Source of the DNA: an uncultured Acidimicrobiales bacterium
GTDB taxonomy: Bacteria > Actinomycetota > Acidimicrobiia > Acidimicrobiales > JANYDT01
DNA: 64,000 bases
Direction: 5' to 3'
Assembly (NCBI GenBank): GCA_963763885.1
Contig: CAVXQD010000007.1
Coordinates: 125,677-189,676 of the forward strand
Of the stretch, positions 46,757-54,215 are shown piece after piece. The translations under genes and the position numbers were made by a program. Position 1 is the first letter of the stretch, and every line of letters starts with the position of its first letter. The notes beneath the pieces are model-generated. The model had not been told where the DNA came from, made no database searches, and saw only the letters and a program-made list of their open reading frames with translations.

Positions 46757-46805
46757 TGTGACCCTGGTCACCCAACGGCTTCACCATAGTGTTGCCTTGG
46801 TCACA
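46757..46805. promoter_or_regulatory. Two putative CRP/GlxR sites upstream of oppA
   Basis: TGTGA-CCCTGG-TCACC (46757-46772, 9/10) and TGTTG-CCTTGG-TCACA (46790-46805, 8/10) against TGTGA-N6-TCACA. Confidence 0.45.
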
Positions 46806-46931
46806 GGAACCACTCATCGCTGTTCACTCAGCCCGTTTTCGTGTGTTGGCCTTGTTCACTCTGGAGTCTCTGCCTCAAATCCGCCCGAATTCACGCCTTT
46901 TTCGCACCTCCCGCCTACGATCGTGCTCACC

Positions 46932-47972
46932 GTGAAGCCGCACCGACCCGCCAACGCGCTGCATCAGGCATGGGGCCCGGAGCCGTTGCGGATACTCGCG
47001 CCGGGCCTGCTGGTTGTTGGGTTCGCGGCCAGCGCAGCGTTCGTTGCGCATCGTGCGCTGGGGGTGTTGTCGCCGCTGACCGCTGCTGTGGTCATCGGGG
47101 TCGTGCTTTCCAACACCCGTCGTATCCCCGGGCCTTGTTTCGCTGGCATCCAGTGGGCATCGAAAAAGTTGCTACGTCTCGGCGTTGTCCTCCTGGGTTT
47201 ACGACTCACGCTCACCGACATGTGGAAACTGGGTGCGAAAGGCTTGGCGCTCGTGGTCGGTGTTGTTGCAATCACGTTCTTCGCGACGCAATGGATGGCA
47301 CGCAAGTTGGGGCTCTCCCCCACGCTTGGGCTACTTGTCGCAACGGGGTTCTCCATCTGCGGGGCCTCGGCTGTTGCTGCAATGAAAGGCGTGACGCCCG
47401 AGGCAAAAGAAGAAGACGTCGTGTACTCAGTTGCACTGGTGACGTTGTGTGGGTCGCTCGCCATCGTCACGCTGCCCATCGTCGGCGCGTGGTTGGGGTT
47501 TCGCGGTCACACACTTGGTTCGTGGATCGGTGCGTCGGTGCACGACGTGGCCCAGACGATCGCAACTGCGTCGGCAGCAGGTAGTGACGATGTGAAAGAA
47601 GCGGCAATCGTGGTGAAACTCACGCGCGTTGTGTTGCTGGCGCCGATGGTGATCGGTGTCAGCGTGTCGCATCGGCGCCACGTGGTCGACCCTGCTGAGA
47701 CGGGCAGTCGCCCTCCCCTGTTGCCGCTGTTCGTTGCGTGCTTCTTGGCCATGATCGTGGTTCGCACCACCGGAATGGTTCCGAGCGGCGTGTTGAGCAC
47801 GGCCAAAACTGCCGAAACGCTGTTGTTCGCTGCGGCACTTGTGGGGTTGGGAGTCGGTGTCCGATTCGACAAGTTGCGTCGGGTGGGAGTGCGCCCGCTC
47901 GTTCTCGGTCTTGCCAGTTGGGCGGTCATTGCCGGCGTCTCTGCCTTCGGCGTCTGGACCCTCCAGATCTAA
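46932..47972 (+). CDS. YeiH/UPF0324 putative sulfate exporter family membrane protein
   Basis: KKLLRLGVVLLG, GFSICGASAVAA, IGASVHDVAQ, VKLTRVVLLAP. Start uncertain. Confidence 0.88.
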   Translation: MKPHRPANALHQAWGPEPLRILAPGLLVVGFAASAAFVAHRALGVLSPLTAAVVIGVVLSNTRRIPGPCFAGIQWASKKLLRLGVVLLGLRLTLTDMWKLGAKGLALVVGVVAITFFATQWMARKLGLSPTLGLLVATGFSICGASAVAAMKGVTPEAKEEDVVYSVALVTLCGSLAIVTLPIVGAWLGFRGHTLGSWIGASVHDVAQTIATASAAGSDDVKEAAIVVKLTRVVLLAPMVIGVSVSHRRHVVDPAETGSRPPLLPLFVACFLAMIVVRTTGMVPSGVLSTAKTAETLLFAAALVGLGVGVRFDKLRRVGVRPLVLGLASWAVIAGVSAFGVWTLQI

Positions 47973-47978
47973 GCGACG

Positions 47979-48043
47979 GCGAGAGAGGTTGCCCCCAGCC
48001 GTGGGGGTAGTCCACCTCGCAATGTTGTTCCGAGGTGGATTGC
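47979..48043 (+). repeat. 65-bp two-hairpin element, copy A (inverted relative to 51089-51153)
   Basis: GCGAGAGAGGTTGCCCCCA-gccg-TGGGGG-tag-TCCACCTCG-N11-CGAGGTGGATTGC. Confidence 0.9.
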
Positions 48044-48048
48044 TGCGG

Positions 48049-48990
48049 TCAGGCTCGGCGGCGACCCGAGAGCAGGACCAGGCCGGCGCCGATCAGACAG
48101 AGGGCGCCGAGCAACAGACGCGTCGGGTCGCCTCCGGTGTAGGCCACCTCATCGACACCTTCTTCGGGTGCGTTCGCGTCGGCGCCAAGAACATCGATTG
48201 AAGCTTCAGTCGTCGGGGGCTGAGCTGTGGTTGCGGGGGCAATCGACGTTGCTGGGGTTGTGGTCGCAACAGTCGCAGGCACAGTGGCTGCCACCGTCGT
48301 AGCAGCCGCGGTGGGTGGAGCAACGGTGGTTGGAGCAATGGTTGGCTTCGAAGCGATCGTCGTAGTGATAACTGGGTCGGGGTTCGGGGTCTGGGCCGGC
48401 TTCAACGACAACGTCGTCGTCGCAGCAACGGTGCTGGACGGAAAGACCGAGTTCTCAAGGTCCAGATCGGCCATCGCAACAGCGGACATCGGCGCCAGCT
48501 GATCGGCGGTCGCGAAAGCTGTGTTGAGGTACGTGAGGTTGTTGAGGTTCGCGAAGTCGGCAGCCTCAACAACATGCTCCGCTGTACAAGTGATCGCCTC
48601 GGACACCTCAAGCGTGGCCGGCATGACCCGATCGCAGACAAAGTTCGTCGTAGTCGGGTCCGTCAGATTCACTCCCGTCAACTGGCTGTAGCTGTCGTTG
48701 CGCGCGTAAATCTCGAAGAGAATCACTTCTTGATATGCGAACGGAGAACTCTTCCCGTTCGCCACTGACTTTTGCAGGTACAGGTCTGGTTCCCCACAGA
48801 CGCGGTCGGGTACCGGCGTACCGCTTGCCGCTTCCGGAGGTTGTTCATCAATCCGGCAACTCGCTGGAGTTGGAATGGCTTGTGGTTCCGACGCATCGAT
48901 TTGTTGAGTTTCCGTTGCCGTCGCGTCAGAGAGTTCAGCAGCGTTGGACTGGCTGAAACCGAACGAGGCAAGAAGCAGCGCTGCCGCCAC
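48049..48990 (-). CDS. Surface protein with a DUF7507/DUF11-like Ig domain and VAYTG sorting signal
   Basis: Signal peptide, LYLQKS...ILFEIYARN...LTGVNLTD...TCTAEHVV...NTA, Thr/Ala/Pro stalk, VAYTG-TM-RRRA. Confidence 0.75.
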   Translation of the reverse strand: MAAALLLASFGFSQSNAAELSDATATETQQIDASEPQAIPTPASCRIDEQPPEAASGTPVPDRVCGEPDLYLQKSVANGKSSPFAYQEVILFEIYARNDSYSQLTGVNLTDPTTTNFVCDRVMPATLEVSEAITCTAEHVVEAADFANLNNLTYLNTAFATADQLAPMSAVAMADLDLENSVFPSSTVAATTTLSLKPAQTPNPDPVITTTIASKPTIAPTTVAPPTAAATTVAATVPATVATTTPATSIAPATTAQPPTTEASIDVLGADANAPEEGVDEVAYTGGDPTRLLLGALCLIGAGLVLLSGRRRA

Positions 48991-49150
48991 CGGGACTCGG
49001 ACAAGCGACCGACCGTATTTGTAAGCAGACTTACTACCGATTCGACCAAGCCACCCTTCGCTGGACGCGACGAAACGAACGGTTTGGATGGGTGCGGCTG
49101 GTCAATTGGGGCCTCTGAAACTGTGGGAAGTCCGGGGTGGGGTGGAAAAC

Positions 49151-49185
49151 ACAACTGCCCTGCACGCTGGGTGCAAGGCAGTTGT
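49151..49185 (-). terminator. Intrinsic terminator between the two surface-protein genes
   Basis: 15-bp stem on the minus strand (one G-U pair) followed by GTTTT. Confidence 0.7.
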
Positions 49186-49359
49186 TGTATCGAATGATCA
49201 GGGTCAACCTACCCAAGCAAGTTCACGCCTTCCAGCCCAACGAGGTGCTCGAAGGCATGAATCATCTGACGTGATGAGGGCCGTTCACACACCGACTGCC
49301 GAAGGCAACAATCGTGTGTAGACATACGGGTCTCAGATCGGCCGAACCCGTCGATTGGA

Positions 49360-50847
49360 TCAGCCGTGCTGGCGGCGAGTCCGGCGAGTCAGAACGGTAC
49401 CCAGGCCGAGGAGGACAAGGGCCGCCACGAGCATCTGCATCGAGTTGCTTCCGGTAAAGGCCACTTCGGTTGCGCTGGCCACTTCAGAAGGGGCGACCGG
49501 AGAAACTTGGACACCGAGCACTGCCACCTGAGCGACGGTGGTCGCTGCAGCAGTTGTAGGAGCAGCAGTTGTAGGAGCAGCAGTTGTAGGAGCAGCGGTC
49601 GTGGGAGCTGCAGTAACGATTGCCGCTGGAGCGAGGGTCGTGGCCGGGCTGGTTGGGCGAGGGTCTGGGTTCGTCGGAGGTGCCGAGATCAACGAAGGAA
49701 CAGTCGTCGCAACGGTCGTGGCGACGGTTGTCTCAGGCGGCAACGTCGTGGCGACGGTTGACTCAGGCGGCAACGTCGTGGCGACGGTTGACTCAGGCGG
49801 CAACGTCGTATCTGGCGGCAACGTCGTATCTGGCGGCAACGTCGTATCTGGCGGCAACGTCGAATCTGGCGGCAACGTCGAAGCAACCGTCGTATCTGGC
49901 GGCAACGTCGAATCTGGCGGCAACGTCGAAGCAACCGTCGTATCTGGCGGCAACGTCGTATCTGGCGGCAACGTCGTCGCAACCGTCGTATCTGGCGGCA
50001 ACGTCGTATCTGGCGGCAACGTCGTCGCAACCGTCGTGTCTGGCGGCAACGTCGTCACGACGGGCTGCAATAGCTGCGCAACAGCCGAGTCGGAGACCAG
50101 ACCAGTTTGGGTGCTGGATGCCGAGGCAGTGTTGTTGTACGTGTTCTGCGCAACGTCGGCGAGGACCACGGCGTGTGTACCGGCACAAACCATTGTCGCC
50201 AACGGTGCGAGCGTGGCCGGGCTTGCAGGAGTGCACGACAGCCCCGTAATCGTGGGATCAGATACTGCGACCCCCGTCTGCGGCAGGTTGCCCGTGTTGG
50301 TAACGGTGATCGAATATTCGATCGTTTCCCCAACCTCGTACGGCGATGCAGCGGTGTTCGTGATGATCTTGTCGATGGACAGCGTCTGGCGAGCCGGCTC
50401 AACACATGCGCCGATCTGGGTCACGTTTCCCTTGCCGCCGACGTGGTAGGTGTCGCCCAGAACACCGAGGCCGAACGTGTAGCCGGAGCCGCCGCCGGTG
50501 AAGATCTCAAATGAGGAAATCGCGTACCCTGAAGGGCTGAGCGACGCCGGGGTCAGCCTTGGATCCTGAGCCGTTCCACTTTGGGTGAACGTCAGGGTTG
50601 GATCGATTCCGATGTTCGCTGTGGCGTTGTGCACGTGCGTTCCGTTGCGACCGCCAGCTGACCAGCGGTAGTAAGTGCCGCCGTTTCCACAAGAGTCGCC
50701 CGACGCTTTTGGAGAAGCGAGTGGCCCCGTGGCTTCGGTGGCTGGATGGTCAGTCGCTCCAACCTGCACCAAGGCCACCGCCGACAGCAGGAGCGCAGCT
50801 GCAATCGAGGTTCGGATGGGATGAGAGGAGGGTCGGGGATAGCGCAT
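49360..50847 (-). CDS. Surface protein with a DUF7507-like domain, LPPDTT repeats and VAFTG sorting signal
   Basis: Signal peptide, LSIDK...VGETIEYSITVTNTGN...VSDP...CAGTHAVVLAD...NTA, tandem TTLPP(D/E)(T/S)T(VA) repeats, VAFTG-TM-RRTRR. Confidence 0.8.
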   Translation of the reverse strand: MRYPRPSSHPIRTSIAAALLLSAVALVQVGATDHPATEATGPLASPKASGDSCGNGGTYYRWSAGGRNGTHVHNATANIGIDPTLTFTQSGTAQDPRLTPASLSPSGYAISSFEIFTGGGSGYTFGLGVLGDTYHVGGKGNVTQIGACVEPARQTLSIDKIITNTAASPYEVGETIEYSITVTNTGNLPQTGVAVSDPTITGLSCTPASPATLAPLATMVCAGTHAVVLADVAQNTYNNTASASSTQTGLVSDSAVAQLLQPVVTTLPPDTTVATTLPPDTTLPPDTTVATTLPPDTTLPPDTTVASTLPPDSTLPPDTTVASTLPPDSTLPPDTTLPPDTTLPPDTTLPPESTVATTLPPESTVATTLPPETTVATTVATTVPSLISAPPTNPDPRPTSPATTLAPAAIVTAAPTTAAPTTAAPTTAAPTTAAATTVAQVAVLGVQVSPVAPSEVASATEVAFTGSNSMQMLVAALVLLGLGTVLTRRTRRQHG

Positions 50848-51032
50848 CGTGGATCCTTGTGCGGAGTTCTCGTCGGCGAAGAGGGCGACCGCAGGCCCAA
50901 TCCGTTGCTTGTTGAAGCAAGCAACGTCAACCTACGATCGCCGCGCGCCGACGTCATCATCGCGATGCGTGACCAGCCGGAAATCATCAGGGCTGATGAA
51001 GCCATCGACACTGCCCGGTGCCAGAACGCGAA

Positions 51033-51065
51033 ACGACGGCCCACCCCCGTTGGGCGGACCGTCGC
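51033..51065 (-). terminator. Intrinsic terminator downstream of infB
   Basis: 14-bp stem (including G-U pairs) GCGACGGTCCGCCC/GGGTGGGCCGTCGT followed by TT on the minus strand. Confidence 0.65.
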
Positions 51066-51088
51066 AAGTTCACGTTTGTTGCGCCGAG

Positions 51089-51153
51089 GCAATCCACCTC
51101 GGAACGCAGTTACGAGGTGGAAAGCCCCCAGGAGTGGGGGCAACCTCTCTCGC
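51089..51153 (-). repeat. 65-bp two-hairpin element, copy B
   Basis: Minus strand GCGAGAGAGGTTGCCCCCA-ctcc-TGGGGG-ctt-TCCACCTCG-N11-CGAGGTGGATTGC; 54/65 identical to copy A. Confidence 0.9.
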
Positions 51154-51158
51154 GAGCA

Positions 51159-54100
51159 CTACACCCGAGCGATTTCTCGCTCTTCGAAGGTTTCGATGAT
51201 GTCGCCACCCTTGAGGTCTTTGAAGTCGGTGAGGCCGATACCGCACTCGAAGCCCGTCTGGACCTCTCGCACGTCGTCCTTGAACCGCCGCAGCGACGCA
51301 ATGGCACCCTTCCAGATGACTACGCCTTCACGGAGGAACCGCACCTTGGAACCACGGGTGATGGAACCGTTGCGAACCATGCAACCGGCAATGGCGCCGA
51401 TCTTGGGCACGCTGAAGACCTCGCGGACTTCGGCTTCACCGGTGACAACTTCTTCGAACTCTGGCTTGAGCAGACCGAGCATTGCGGACTGCATGTCCTC
51501 GAGCACCTTGTAGATGATGTCGTAGGTGCGAATCTGCACCTTCTCGTCTTCAGCAAGTGCTCGTGAGTTGCGGTCTGGTCGGACGTTGAAGCCGATGATG
51601 GTTGACCCGGTGGTTGCGGCCAACTGCACGTCGTACTGAGTGATGCCGCCGACTGCGCGGTGCACGAAGGTGATCTTGACCTCTGGACGTTCCAGCTTCT
51701 TGAGCGACGTGGTGAGCGCCTCCAAGGAACCTTGCACGTCTGCCTTGAGCACCAAGTTGAGCGTGGCAGCTTCGCCCTTTTGGATCTGTTCGAACAGATC
51801 TTCCAGCTTGACGCCACCGCTGACAGCCGACGCCGAACCAGCAAGACCGGCGAAACGCTGACGCGATTCACGAGACTCGCCAACGACCTTGGCAATCTTC
51901 AGGTTTGGAGCTGCACGCAGTTCGTCGCCTGCACCAGGGACCATGGACAGACCGAGGATCTGTACAGGGGTGGACGGGCCAACGGACTTGACCTGTTCAC
52001 CACGGTCATTGATAAGCGCACGTACTGAACCCCACGCAGGACCGGCAACGATTGGGTCGCCGACGGACAAGGTGCCCTTTTCGATGAGCACGGTGGCAAC
52101 TGGACCACGGCCGATGTCGAGGTTGGCTTCCAGCACGGTGCCGCGGGCCTTGCCCGATGGAACCGACTTGAGGTCTTCGACGTCTGCGACCAGGAGCACC
52201 TGCTCCAAGAGGTCATCGATGCCCAAGTTCTGCAGCGCGGACAGCTCAACCATGATGGTGTCGCCGCCCCATGCTTCAGGGACAAGGTCGTGTTCGGCGA
52301 GCTGCTGCATAACCCGGTTGGGGTCTGCGCCAGGCACGTCGATTTTGTTGATGGCCACCACAATTGGCACCTCTGCAGCCTTGGCCGCAGCGAGCGCTTC
52401 CAGGGTCTGAGGCATGACGCCGTCGTTGGCGGCAACCACCAAGATGACGATGTCGGTGACCTGCGCACCACGCAGACGCATCGACGTAAAGGCCTCGTGG
52501 CCAGGGGTGTCGATGAAAGTGATGAGACGGCCGTCTTTGACTACCTGGTACGCACCGATGTGCTGCGTGATGCCACCGGCTTCGCCGGCGACAACGTTGG
52601 CAGACCGGATGCGGTCAAGGATGGTGGTCTTGCCATGGTCGACGTGACCCATGACGGTGATGACCGGTGGACGGGTTTCGTACAGGTCGTCGTCGTCTTC
52701 GTCAGAGTCGTCTTGGAACAGCTGGAGGAGTTCGACCTCTTCCTGCTGGCCTGGATCGACCAACAGCACCTGTGCGCCAATGTCGAGTGCGAACAGCTCG
52801 ATCATGTCGTCGGTGAGGCTCATGGTGGCCGAGACGAGCTCGCCCTGTGACATGAGGAAACGGACGACGTCTGCTGCGCTGCGGTTGACCTTTGGACCGA
52901 GATCCTGTGCTGACGCACCGCGCTCGACAATGACTTCGCCGTCCGGAACCGGGGCGGAAGACTTCTCGTAACGGGTGATACGGCCGGGCTCTAGCTCTTC
53001 GAATGCCTTACGACGCTTCGAACGGCTCTGGCGCTGCTGGGTTGGACGCCCACGGCCGCCACCAGGACCGCCCTTGCCACCGGGGCCACCAGGACCACCT
53101 GGACGCGGGACACCTGCGCCTGGCACGGACTGGCGGGGGAATGAACCGCCACCTGGCCGCGAAGGCGTGTAGCCAGGACGGCTGCCGGGAGCACCTGCTG
53201 GACGTGCACCGGGAGCACCGGGACGAGCACCTGCGCCGGCACCGCCAGGACCGCCTGGGCGTGCACCTGGACCACCTGGACGTGCGCCTGGAGCACCCGG
53301 AGGTGTTGGACGACCACCAGGGGGAGGCGGGATAGGCCGACCGCTGAATGAACGAGGTGGACCGGGAGGCGGCGGGATAGGCCGACCCGTGGCCGACTTC
53401 GGAGGCTCTGCTGGGCGTTGCCCGATTGGGTTCTGCAACGGAGGACTTCCTGCCGGACGCGGTGCGTGCGGAACGGGAGCCCCTGGACCGGGAACGACCG
53501 GGGCGGACTCTGCAGCGGGTGCAGCAGGAGCCGAGGCAGCCGGAGCTGCTGCGGGTGCTGCCGATGCCACAGGAGCCGATACGACCGGTGCAGCGTCGGC
53601 GGCTGGTGCCGACGCAAGGTCTGACACTGGAGCCGATGCCGCGACGGCCGGAGCCGCTGGCGCAGGGGCCGTCTGCTGAACCGGGGCGGCAGGTGCAGCC
53701 GATGGAGTGGCAGGTGCAGCAACAGCAGCGGCCGGAGCCACTGGCGCCGGAGCGCTTGAGCTGACCGGGTTCACCGGGGTGATAGGCGCGGTCGGCCGCG
53801 GAGGCGCACCAGGTGCCGTTGGCCGTGCCGATGACACGATGCGGTTGACCGATGGTGCAGGCGGCCCTGGGGCGACTGCAGGCTCGGTGGCCGTGGCGGC
53901 TGCCGCAGCGACCGACGGGGCTGCAGAAGGCGAAAAACTTGGAGCTGCGGCAGGAGCTGCTTCGGCCGGAGCCTCTGCGGCCGCGTCGGCACCCTTCTTG
54001 GCGGTCTTCTTGACCGGCTTCTCTTCTTCGGGCTGAACGTCGCGCTTGAGCCCTTCACGTTCGGCCTTACGCCGGGCGCGGTCGGCCTGGGCGTCCTCGA

Positions 54101-54215
54101 TGGAAGACGAGTGGCTCTTGACCCCGATCCCCAGCCCGACGCATAGGTCGAGCGTTTCTTTGTTGGTGAGGCCCAGTTCTCGTGCGAGTTCGTGAAGCCT
54201 GATCTTGGCAGCCAA
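51159..54215 (-). CDS. infB: Translation initiation factor IF-2
   Basis: [12 protein letters not shown]-terminus, Pro/Gly-rich actinobacterial linker, [25 protein letters not shown]. Confidence 0.98.

Follow-up and report, generated by a model that had tools for sequence, protein, structure and literature searches.

In the 64,000-nt stretch of DNA analysed here (hereafter, the window), which derives from an uncultured Acidimicrobiales bacterium (contig CAVXQD010000007.1), two inverted arms lie about 3 kb apart, beyond the stop codons of a yeiH-like gene and of infB. Each arm is probably an independent copy of a dispersed palindromic repeat, 69 nt long and non-autonomous, similar to repetitive extragenic palindromic (REP) sequences and bacterial interspersed mosaic elements (BIMEs), which occupies the slot immediately following stop codons; the best reading of the data is that this REP/BIME-like mobile repeat family is new. 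The source genome of the window (G000) is 4.98 Mb long, with a GC content of 61%, and is split into 8 contigs; positions outside the window are given below as contig:position. The two copies and the genes whose 3' untranslated regions (UTRs) hold them are the following:

47979..48047, plus strand: element copy 1, 69 nt, retrieved by inverted-repeat and pattern searches (covariance model R1, 79.8 bits; predicted fold of -37.4 kcal/mol); box 47979-47991, hairpin 1 47992-48007, hairpin 2 48008-48042, tail 48043-48047.

51085..51153, minus strand: element copy 2, 69 nt, retrieved by inverted-repeat and pattern searches (covariance model R1, 80.2 bits); box 51141-51153, hairpin 1 51125-51140, hairpin 2 51090-51124, tail 51085-51089.

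46758..47972, plus strand: yeiH-like membrane protein gene (PF03601), with copy 1 in its 3' UTR.

51159..54215, minus strand: infB (IF-2), with copy 2 in its 3' UTR.

A repeat search of the window recovered the copies as inverted arms of 70 nt (47979-48048 and 51084-51153), 81% complementary to each other. Aligned in the same sense, they share 54 identities over 65 positions, and the original prediction that they are inverted twin-hairpin copies differing only in the loops and in the linker is borne out by the alignment, the 11 differences falling at element positions 20, 21 and 23 (hairpin-1 loop), 30-32 (linker), and 42 and 45-48 (inner hairpin 2). The extent of 65 bp proposed there needed correction: the copies are real and of equal length, but the information content of the aligned copies indicates that the unit runs for 69 nt. 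The motif CCCCCA-N-TGGGGG occurs exactly twice in the window (0.06 expected from shuffles), as does TCCACCTCG-N-CGAGGTGGA (0.00 expected), and both copies are predicted to fold into two adjacent hairpins of about -37 kcal/mol (z about -3). In agreement with the placement of each copy, in sense orientation, 5-6 nt after a stop codon, copy 1 begins 6 nt past the TAA of the yeiH-like gene (47972) and copy 2 begins 5 nt past the TAG of infB (51159).

To define the family, a covariance model (CM; R1) was built from 44 ungapped copies (alignment A1). The element is a discrete, sharply bounded unit of fixed length (69 nt): information content is approximately zero before it (at most 0.42 bits at positions -20 to -1), exceeds 1.3 bits from position 1, where the conserved 5' end GCGAGAGAGG starts, and is back to background after position 69, and all the canonical copies have one length. 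Its parts are, in order, the GA box GCGAGAGAGGTYG, which is single-stranded and within which GAGAGAGG is invariant; hairpin 1 (CCCCCA-N4-TGGGGG); a 16-bp hairpin 2 stacked directly on hairpin 1, with the invariant core CACCTC/GAGGTG; and the tail GCCGCA. The single form thus described has its own conserved 3' tail, with an invariant C68, and no enrichment of T was found at positions 70-100 of the aligned copies, where a T-tract was looked for.

The pairing is supported by the fact that 85.6% of the cells are paired in the named structure, versus 38-49% for controls with slid partners, and by two-sided (compensatory) changes at the hairpin-2 pairs 31-63, 32-62, 33-61, 34-60, 41-53 and 42-52. 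Moreover, the commonest hairpin-2 variant in other species (129 copies) is AACACCTCC/GGAGGTGTT rather than TCCACCTCG/CGAGGTGGA, with compensation at several pairs. Pairing of positions 1-3 with positions 66-68 as a closing helix was considered and rejected, pair 2-67 being unpaired in 89 out of 127 copies from relatives.

Besides the single form, which predominates, symmetric doubles (box-H1-H2-H1'-box') are found at two loci of the source genome (C1:1097036-1097128 and C2:491806-491898) and account for 13 of 134 copies in relatives. Other arrangements were also observed. In long variants (C3:144129, C3:521000, C1:613276 and C3:439686) the hairpin-1 loop accommodates another repeat, about 60 nt long (GGCGCGGCCGAGYGGTGAGCGGAGGGAYCGGAG...CCGAGGTGAGCAACCC), whose reverse complement is present, as 66-nt in-frame tandem copies, in the gene at C1:1095855-1096952, where it encodes PVSNGLLHLGSNSDPSVHRSAA four times. 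At C7:477397-477431 a minimal perfect palindrome comprises nothing but the box plus its complement (GCGAGAGAGGTTGCCGCCC-GGGGCGGCAACCTCTCTCGC), and the box is associated with other GC hairpins at C3:717417 and C7:936551.

Regarding copy number, an exact search for the hairpin-2 stem retrieved 9 copies from the source genome, a fuzzy search for the box plus hairpin 1 retrieved 59 seeds, and the CM retrieved 48 full matches of at least 50 bits at 46 loci, dispersed over four large contigs and having unrelated neighbours. The CM was then run on 40 relatives, including four congeners (G001-G004). The genomes of the genus harbor 53, 28, 32, 9 and 0 CM copies; five genomes out of six of the sister genus harbor 82-101, and a third genus has a single copy in each of two genomes, while no CM copy was retrieved from the remaining genera and families of the order among these relatives. 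A pattern scan of one genome for each of 185,579 species yielded at least 107 loci, and all 89 loci among the matches listed belong to Acidimicrobiia metagenome-assembled genomes from alpine or glacier-fed streams (8 assemblies). Carriers of the element are limited to a few genera, all within one Acidimicrobiia family; in the plasmid database it was unmatched. Many sister-genus copies have a conserved module (TCGCAACACGAGTGACC...) 10-25 nt upstream of them, in BIME-like mosaics (loci L016, L026, L041, L050, L060, L097 and others), and this module puts the end of the gene 80-100 nt from the element.

The turnover of the copies was followed by mapping 46 element loci of G001 and G003 onto the source genome through their flanks. 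Out of 39 evaluable sites, 24 are occupied in the source genome and 15 are unoccupied; three of the latter are clean empty sites (C7:517734, C2:475006 and C1:412044), and several others carry a different short hairpin in the same slot after the stop. Copies are therefore gained and lost at orthologous sites between sister species. In six orthologous copies, divergence reaches 62% in the hairpin-1 loop and 36% in inner hairpin 2, falling to 12% in the hairpin-2 stem (partly compensated), 4% in the GA box, 3% in the tail and 1% in the hairpin-1 stem, and the immediate flanks are often unalignable. Hence, either the element keeps its structure and box where it stands, or other members of the family take the place of existing copies.

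The placement of the copies is equally well defined. Considering sense-strand open reading frames (ORFs) of at least 80 codons, 29 out of 45 copies of the source genome start from -2 to +10 nt after a stop codon, versus 4.5% of random positions (p = 2e-28); if a convergent gene comes next, usually 0-45 nt separate its stop from the far side of the element. The association is weaker in the sister genus (28% versus 5% in the control). The spacing between stop and element spans all three frames in the source genome, so that no read-through peptide is implied. The stops preceding these copies are TAG in 16 cases, TAA in 7 and TGA in 6, versus 20%, 19% and 61%, respectively, genome-wide (p = 1e-5); the yeiH-like gene ends with TAA in the source genome and its orthologs in G001 and G003, which lack the element there, end with TGA. 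No such bias was detected upstream of the element in the sister genus (p = 0.29). Finally, the codon usage of the element-bearing genes is more typical than the genome median (p = 2.5e-5).

As for an assignment to a described RNA family, a search of the window against Rfam 15 at the gathering threshold retrieved tRNA only, and in a permissive search the best match to the element scored 16 bits against a threshold of 50, that is, noise; the statement that the element is not a known Rfam family thus holds. Of the two explanations originally offered, the one invoking an undescribed structured 3'-UTR or REP family agrees with this lack of a match, with the stop-proximal sense placement, with the compensatory changes and with the differences in presence and absence among species. 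We propose that the element may spread as DNA through a trans-acting enzyme other than the REP-associated tyrosine transposase (RAYT), and that its copies would be kept after stop codons because, once transcribed, they provide 3'-UTR hairpins in place of the unrelated hairpins seen there in relatives. These hairpins might act as a barrier to 3' exonucleases, as a weak or bidirectional terminator, or as an insulator. Compensatory changes keep the stems of the element paired, while its loops diverge to saturation, and it can form symmetric doubles at convergent gene pairs. According to this model, the yeiH and infB copies were acquired separately.

A terminator function was evaluated at this locus as well. 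The canonical intrinsic terminator was rejected, the hairpins being present but the U-tract being absent: a terminator scan of 47700-51400 retrieved no canonical terminator and called neither copy, its single match joining hairpin 1 (by its 3' arm) to hairpin 2 (by its 5' arm), which is fewer than in shuffles. In a separate, strict terminator scan just 1% of the gene ends genome-wide qualify, so that this second scan has no power. A further hairpin is located beyond copy 2:

51030..51064, minus strand: GC-rich hairpin of 14 bp, distinct from the element, some 20 nt beyond copy 2 and with UUUCGCGUU after it (-31.4 kcal/mol, z -4.6).

The position of this hairpin is conserved in G003, and under the 5-T rule of the terminator scan the hairpin is not called. 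It is a better candidate than copy 2 for the infB terminator, so that the element at infB lies within the 3' UTR, ahead of the hairpin that is likelier to terminate transcription.

Several observations weigh against the interpretation of the element as a REP/BIME-like mobile repeat with 3'-UTR hairpins. Firstly, the Y1/RAYT transposase domain (PF01797) has no match in G000, G001, G004 and G012, all of them carriers (at a genome completeness of 76-95%, the absence is strong but not absolute); one match exists in G003, where it is not flanked by elements. Since a RAYT is detectable neither in this genome nor in most of the carriers, the family cannot be filed as a REP-RAYT system. Secondly, the longest words shared by the flanks (3-7 nt) are at chance level, no target-site duplication emerged from the comparison of empty and filled sites, and the common single form, which is asymmetric, has no terminal inverted repeats. 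Thirdly, the stronger terminator-like hairpin that follows the infB copy implies that copy 2 is not needed there as a terminator. Fourthly, G-U mismatches do not exceed A-C mismatches on the sense strand, the counts being 40 versus 31 in the source genome and about 62 versus 63 in relatives (doubtful pair 44-50 excluded); hence, the structure may matter as DNA rather than as RNA. Related sequences were found in only one metatranscriptome, a fragmentary one, in short contigs from relatives; one assembler contig crosses a copy of the element and ends about 11 nt past hairpin 2, and no match was obtained with the 70-nt element alone. Given these thin public RNA data and the missing G-U/A-C signal, the role at the RNA level is one that we infer.

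The last of these observations concerns the box-outward inverted pairs 1.5-3.4 kb apart, of which six are present in the source genome (C1:1097036/1099257, C2:309985/313386, C2:491806/493502, C3:631998/633584, C7:173655/176829 and C7:2024305/2026462) versus 0.41 expected when an equal number of elements is placed at random gene 3' ends, an excess of about 15-fold. Two of these pairs involve doubles, and can be equally read as tandem, and one consists of the two insertions of an insertion sequence (IS) described below. A preference for junctions that are convergent or variable is compatible with the pair excess, but does not fully account for it.

The IS in question belongs to the IS110 family (PF02371), is 1.48 kb long and is present in two copies, 99.5% identical, at C7:2022839-2024310 (plus strand) and C7:2026527-2028004 (minus strand). 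Each IS copy interrupts a different copy of the element, and the insertion point within the GA box and the orientation are shared by the two, with junctions GCGAGAG-AG / IS / AG-GTTGCCCCC. The GA box is evidently a specific insertion target of this IS, and the targeting is presumably programmed by its bridge RNA. The possibility that the IS is the parent of the element was rejected: the IS interrupts the element, to which its ends (ATGCCATGG... and ...CAAAGAT) bear no relation, so that it parasitises the repeat rather than having given rise to it. REP sequences are known targets of IS110-family elements such as IS621 (PMC11208160).

Among the alternatives to a mobile REP/BIME-like repeat, the one surviving best, although we regard it as unlikely, is that the element is not selfish DNA but a host-selected cis-acting 3'-UTR RNA module, whose GA box and Shine-Dalgarno (SD)/anti-SD-like core would be recognised by the ribosome or by a dedicated RNA-binding factor, thereby linking the end of translation to mRNA decay, to the recycling of ribosomes or to transcription termination. 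The extreme sense placement beside stop codons speaks in its favor, together with the depletion of TGA in the genus (6 out of 29), the more typical codon usage of the element-bearing genes, and the constraint on box, stems and tail, which is far stronger than that on loops and flanks at orthologous sites. Moreover, CACCTCC is identical to the 3' end of the 16S rRNA of this genome (GAUCACCUCCUUUCU), and GAGGTG is its complement. However, G002 has no copies at all, copy number varies 100-fold among sister species, and orthologous genes do well with unrelated hairpins; the sister genus shows no stop-codon bias and a stop-proximal fraction of merely 28%; and neither the mismatch counts nor the stop spacing, distributed over three frames, are those expected of such a module.

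A further, distinctly improbable, reading is that of a functional 3'-UTR module coupled to translation termination. The single-stranded GA box, SD-like and 0-10 nt past the stop, and hairpin 2, which would pair the exact anti-SD mimic CACCUCC with the SD sequence GGAGGUG, might together catch ribosomes after termination or set them free, or else prevent SelB/RF2-type events at UGA. If true, this would explain the avoidance of UGA upstream of the element in the genus. As a secondary possibility, palindromic hairpin 2 would be a hot spot for the insertion of genes between convergent genes, which would explain the excess of box-outward pairs.

Very little probability is assigned to a DNA-level protein-binding site, that is, the recognition of the inverted repeat CACCTC-N13-GAGGTG by a nucleoid-associated protein, gyrase or a dimeric regulator, as has been proposed for the BIMEs of E. 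coli. Hairpin 2 is indeed a near-perfect palindrome with an invariant hexamer core, and the mismatch types show no strand asymmetry, but this would leave unexplained the strict sense orientation, the distance from the stop of no more than 10 nt, and the compensatory changes, which keep the pairing while altering the sequence.

Lastly, the two copies had been proposed as recombination sites, acted on in trans, bounding an invertible or mobilisable surface-antigen cassette. The segment between the copies contains the following genes:

48049..48990, minus strand: DUF7507 surface-protein gene with a VAYTG sorting signal, a variable yeiH-infB gene lying outside the element; its stop abuts the 3' end of copy 1, with which it is convergent.

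49360..50847, minus strand: DUF7507/DUF11 surface-protein gene, also outside the element, with a VAFTG sorting signal and a linker of tandem repeats rich in Pro and Thr; G001 has a homologue that no element flanks.

As originally described, these are the only two ORFs of the segment, both on the minus strand, both matching DUF7507 and both ending with VAYTG/VAFTG, a hydrophobic stretch and a basic tail, and no recombinase ORF is present between copies 1 and 2. The 495-aa DUF7507 gene embeds tandem repeats with periods of 12, 18, 30 and 48 nt (49715-50079, minus strand), encoding the TTLPPD/TTVATT Pro/Thr-rich linker, which are likely a site of surface-protein length variation.

The enclosure of exactly two surface-protein genes by box-outward copies, the over-representation of outward pairs, which are also the commonest type in relatives (9 outward, 3 inward and 4 tandem), and the absence of the DUF7507 genes from G002 are compatible with a cassette. 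The same locus in relatives speaks against it. The empty infB-yeiH junction that had been suggested as a check is found in G002, in which the element is absent genome-wide: the convergent yeiH and infB face each other directly across 110 nt, which hold no DUF7507 genes but a classical GGCCCTGCCAG/CTGGCAGGGCC hairpin between T and A runs. In the other congeners genes and elements do not go together: G001 has one DUF7507 gene between yeiH and infB and the element on neither side, with unrelated hairpins after both stops, and G003 has DUF7507 genes and the element after infB only. The latter copy is orthologous to copy 2, with a spacer of 3 nt versus 5 nt here and with different loops; this ortholog is absent in G001, G002 and G004, and in G004 infB is followed by yet another hairpin. 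Copy 1 is specific to the source species. Because genes and elements occur independently in the congeners, the DUF7507 genes and the two elements have separate histories, and the inverted arrangement around these genes arises because two convergently oriented gene ends each carry a copy. The genes of the locus run in the same order and direction in G000, G001 and G003.

The yeiH-infB slot is in itself hypervariable, harboring no DUF7507 gene in G002, one in G001 and two in G000 and G003; the DUF7507 proteins of congeners are 31-54% identical, versus 98% for the flanking infB.

The origin of the pair by local duplication was also rejected, copies 1 and 2 being just the 7th and 6th closest family members of each other (rank 7 of 43). 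The interiors of the other outward pairs are occupied by unrelated, housekeeping-type genes (by eye, PhoX-like, nitronate monooxygenase-like, FAS1/OmpA, phosphoribosyltransferase-like, MazF-like toxin, globin and methyltransferase); at C2:309985-313386 the interior is conserved in G001 and G003 and the left element is not. In the element-free G002 the flanks of other outward pairs did not turn up together, which speaks neither for nor against a cassette. No joints at elements were detected in four public runs (contigs only, with low power). With one outward pair made up merely of the two IS110 insertions and dozens of scattered copies, 48 in the CM scan, having unrelated neighbours, the cassette is the least credible of the explanations considered and is refuted, scattered copies by the dozen having been named beforehand as the result that would tell against it.

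The recognition of this family would prevent inverted copies from being misread as the boundaries of cassettes or islands during annotation. It is, moreover, a well-defined REP-like family from poorly studied uncultured freshwater and glacier-stream Acidimicrobiia, for which a covariance model and exact boundaries are in hand, and whose distinctive traits are the absence of a RAYT, the unusually tight placement after stop codons and the invariant single-stranded GA box. Being devoid of a RAYT, it represents a test case for the spread of REP-like repeats without a known transposase; its post-stop placement, the avoidance of TGA and its targeting by an IS110 element offer handles on 3'-UTR function and on target choice by bridge recombinases.

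In principle, the element can be compared with the following known systems. In integron arrays every cassette ORF is followed by an attC site of the same orientation, and R''/R' core sites are present together with an integrase; an attC site was rejected, since the copies are dispersed over four contigs, the consensus lacks a GTTRRRY-type core and the cargo is independent of the sites. The mycobacterial TRIT motif is a family-like terminator motif of Actinobacteria, which shares with the element a conserved repeated hairpin at gene 3' ends, a high-GC actinobacterial lineage and the lack of a canonical U-tract. Unlike TRIT, the element varies 100-fold in copy number, with insertion and deletion differences, between sister species, and at infB it lies upstream of a separate terminator-like hairpin; a relationship in sequence is not evident.

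The palindrome-associated transposable elements (PATEs) derived from IS200/IS605 depend on a Y1 TnpA acting in trans, and their left end adjoins a fixed target motif. They resemble the element in being asymmetric, with hairpins near the ends and neither terminal inverted repeats nor target-site duplications, which is compatible with a single-strand DNA mechanism; however, the genome of the element has no Y1 TnpA, and no fixed target tetranucleotide is found at the left end, the stop spacing ranging from -2 to +10 nt. Miniature inverted-repeat transposable elements (MITEs), e.g. Correia/NEMIS of Neisseria and RUP and BOX of Streptococcus, some of which act as terminators or RNA-processing sites, are likewise small non-autonomous dispersed elements with sharp ends and differences in presence and absence between strains. 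They differ in that the single form of the element lacks terminal inverted repeats and target-site duplication, and no parental IS with matching ends was found.

The closest resemblance is with REPs, BIMEs and the REP doublets forming hairpins (REPINs). In work of Liang, Rudd and Deutscher from 2015, many E. coli REPs reportedly lie within 15 nt of a stop codon. As in REPs, many short palindromic extragenic copies are present (48 in the source genome, up to about 100 in relatives); the sites are 3' UTRs and convergent gene ends, mosaics with other repeat modules are formed and inverted doublets occur. Short, GC-rich, imperfectly palindromic extragenic repeats, lineage-restricted and in tens to hundreds of copies, are typical of the REPs of Enterobacteria and Pseudomonas (Bertels and Rainey 2011, PMC3116915), and both the REPs and the element are targeted by IS110-family ISs (PMC11208160). 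The differences are the following: the element lacks a RAYT or Y1 transposase and a GTAG head, no GTAG-type head having been found beside the hairpin in the aligned copies; its dominant and apparently best-conserved form is the single one rather than the inverted doublet; and it is a unit of 69 nt in which two unlike hairpins are joined to an invariant single-stranded GA box.

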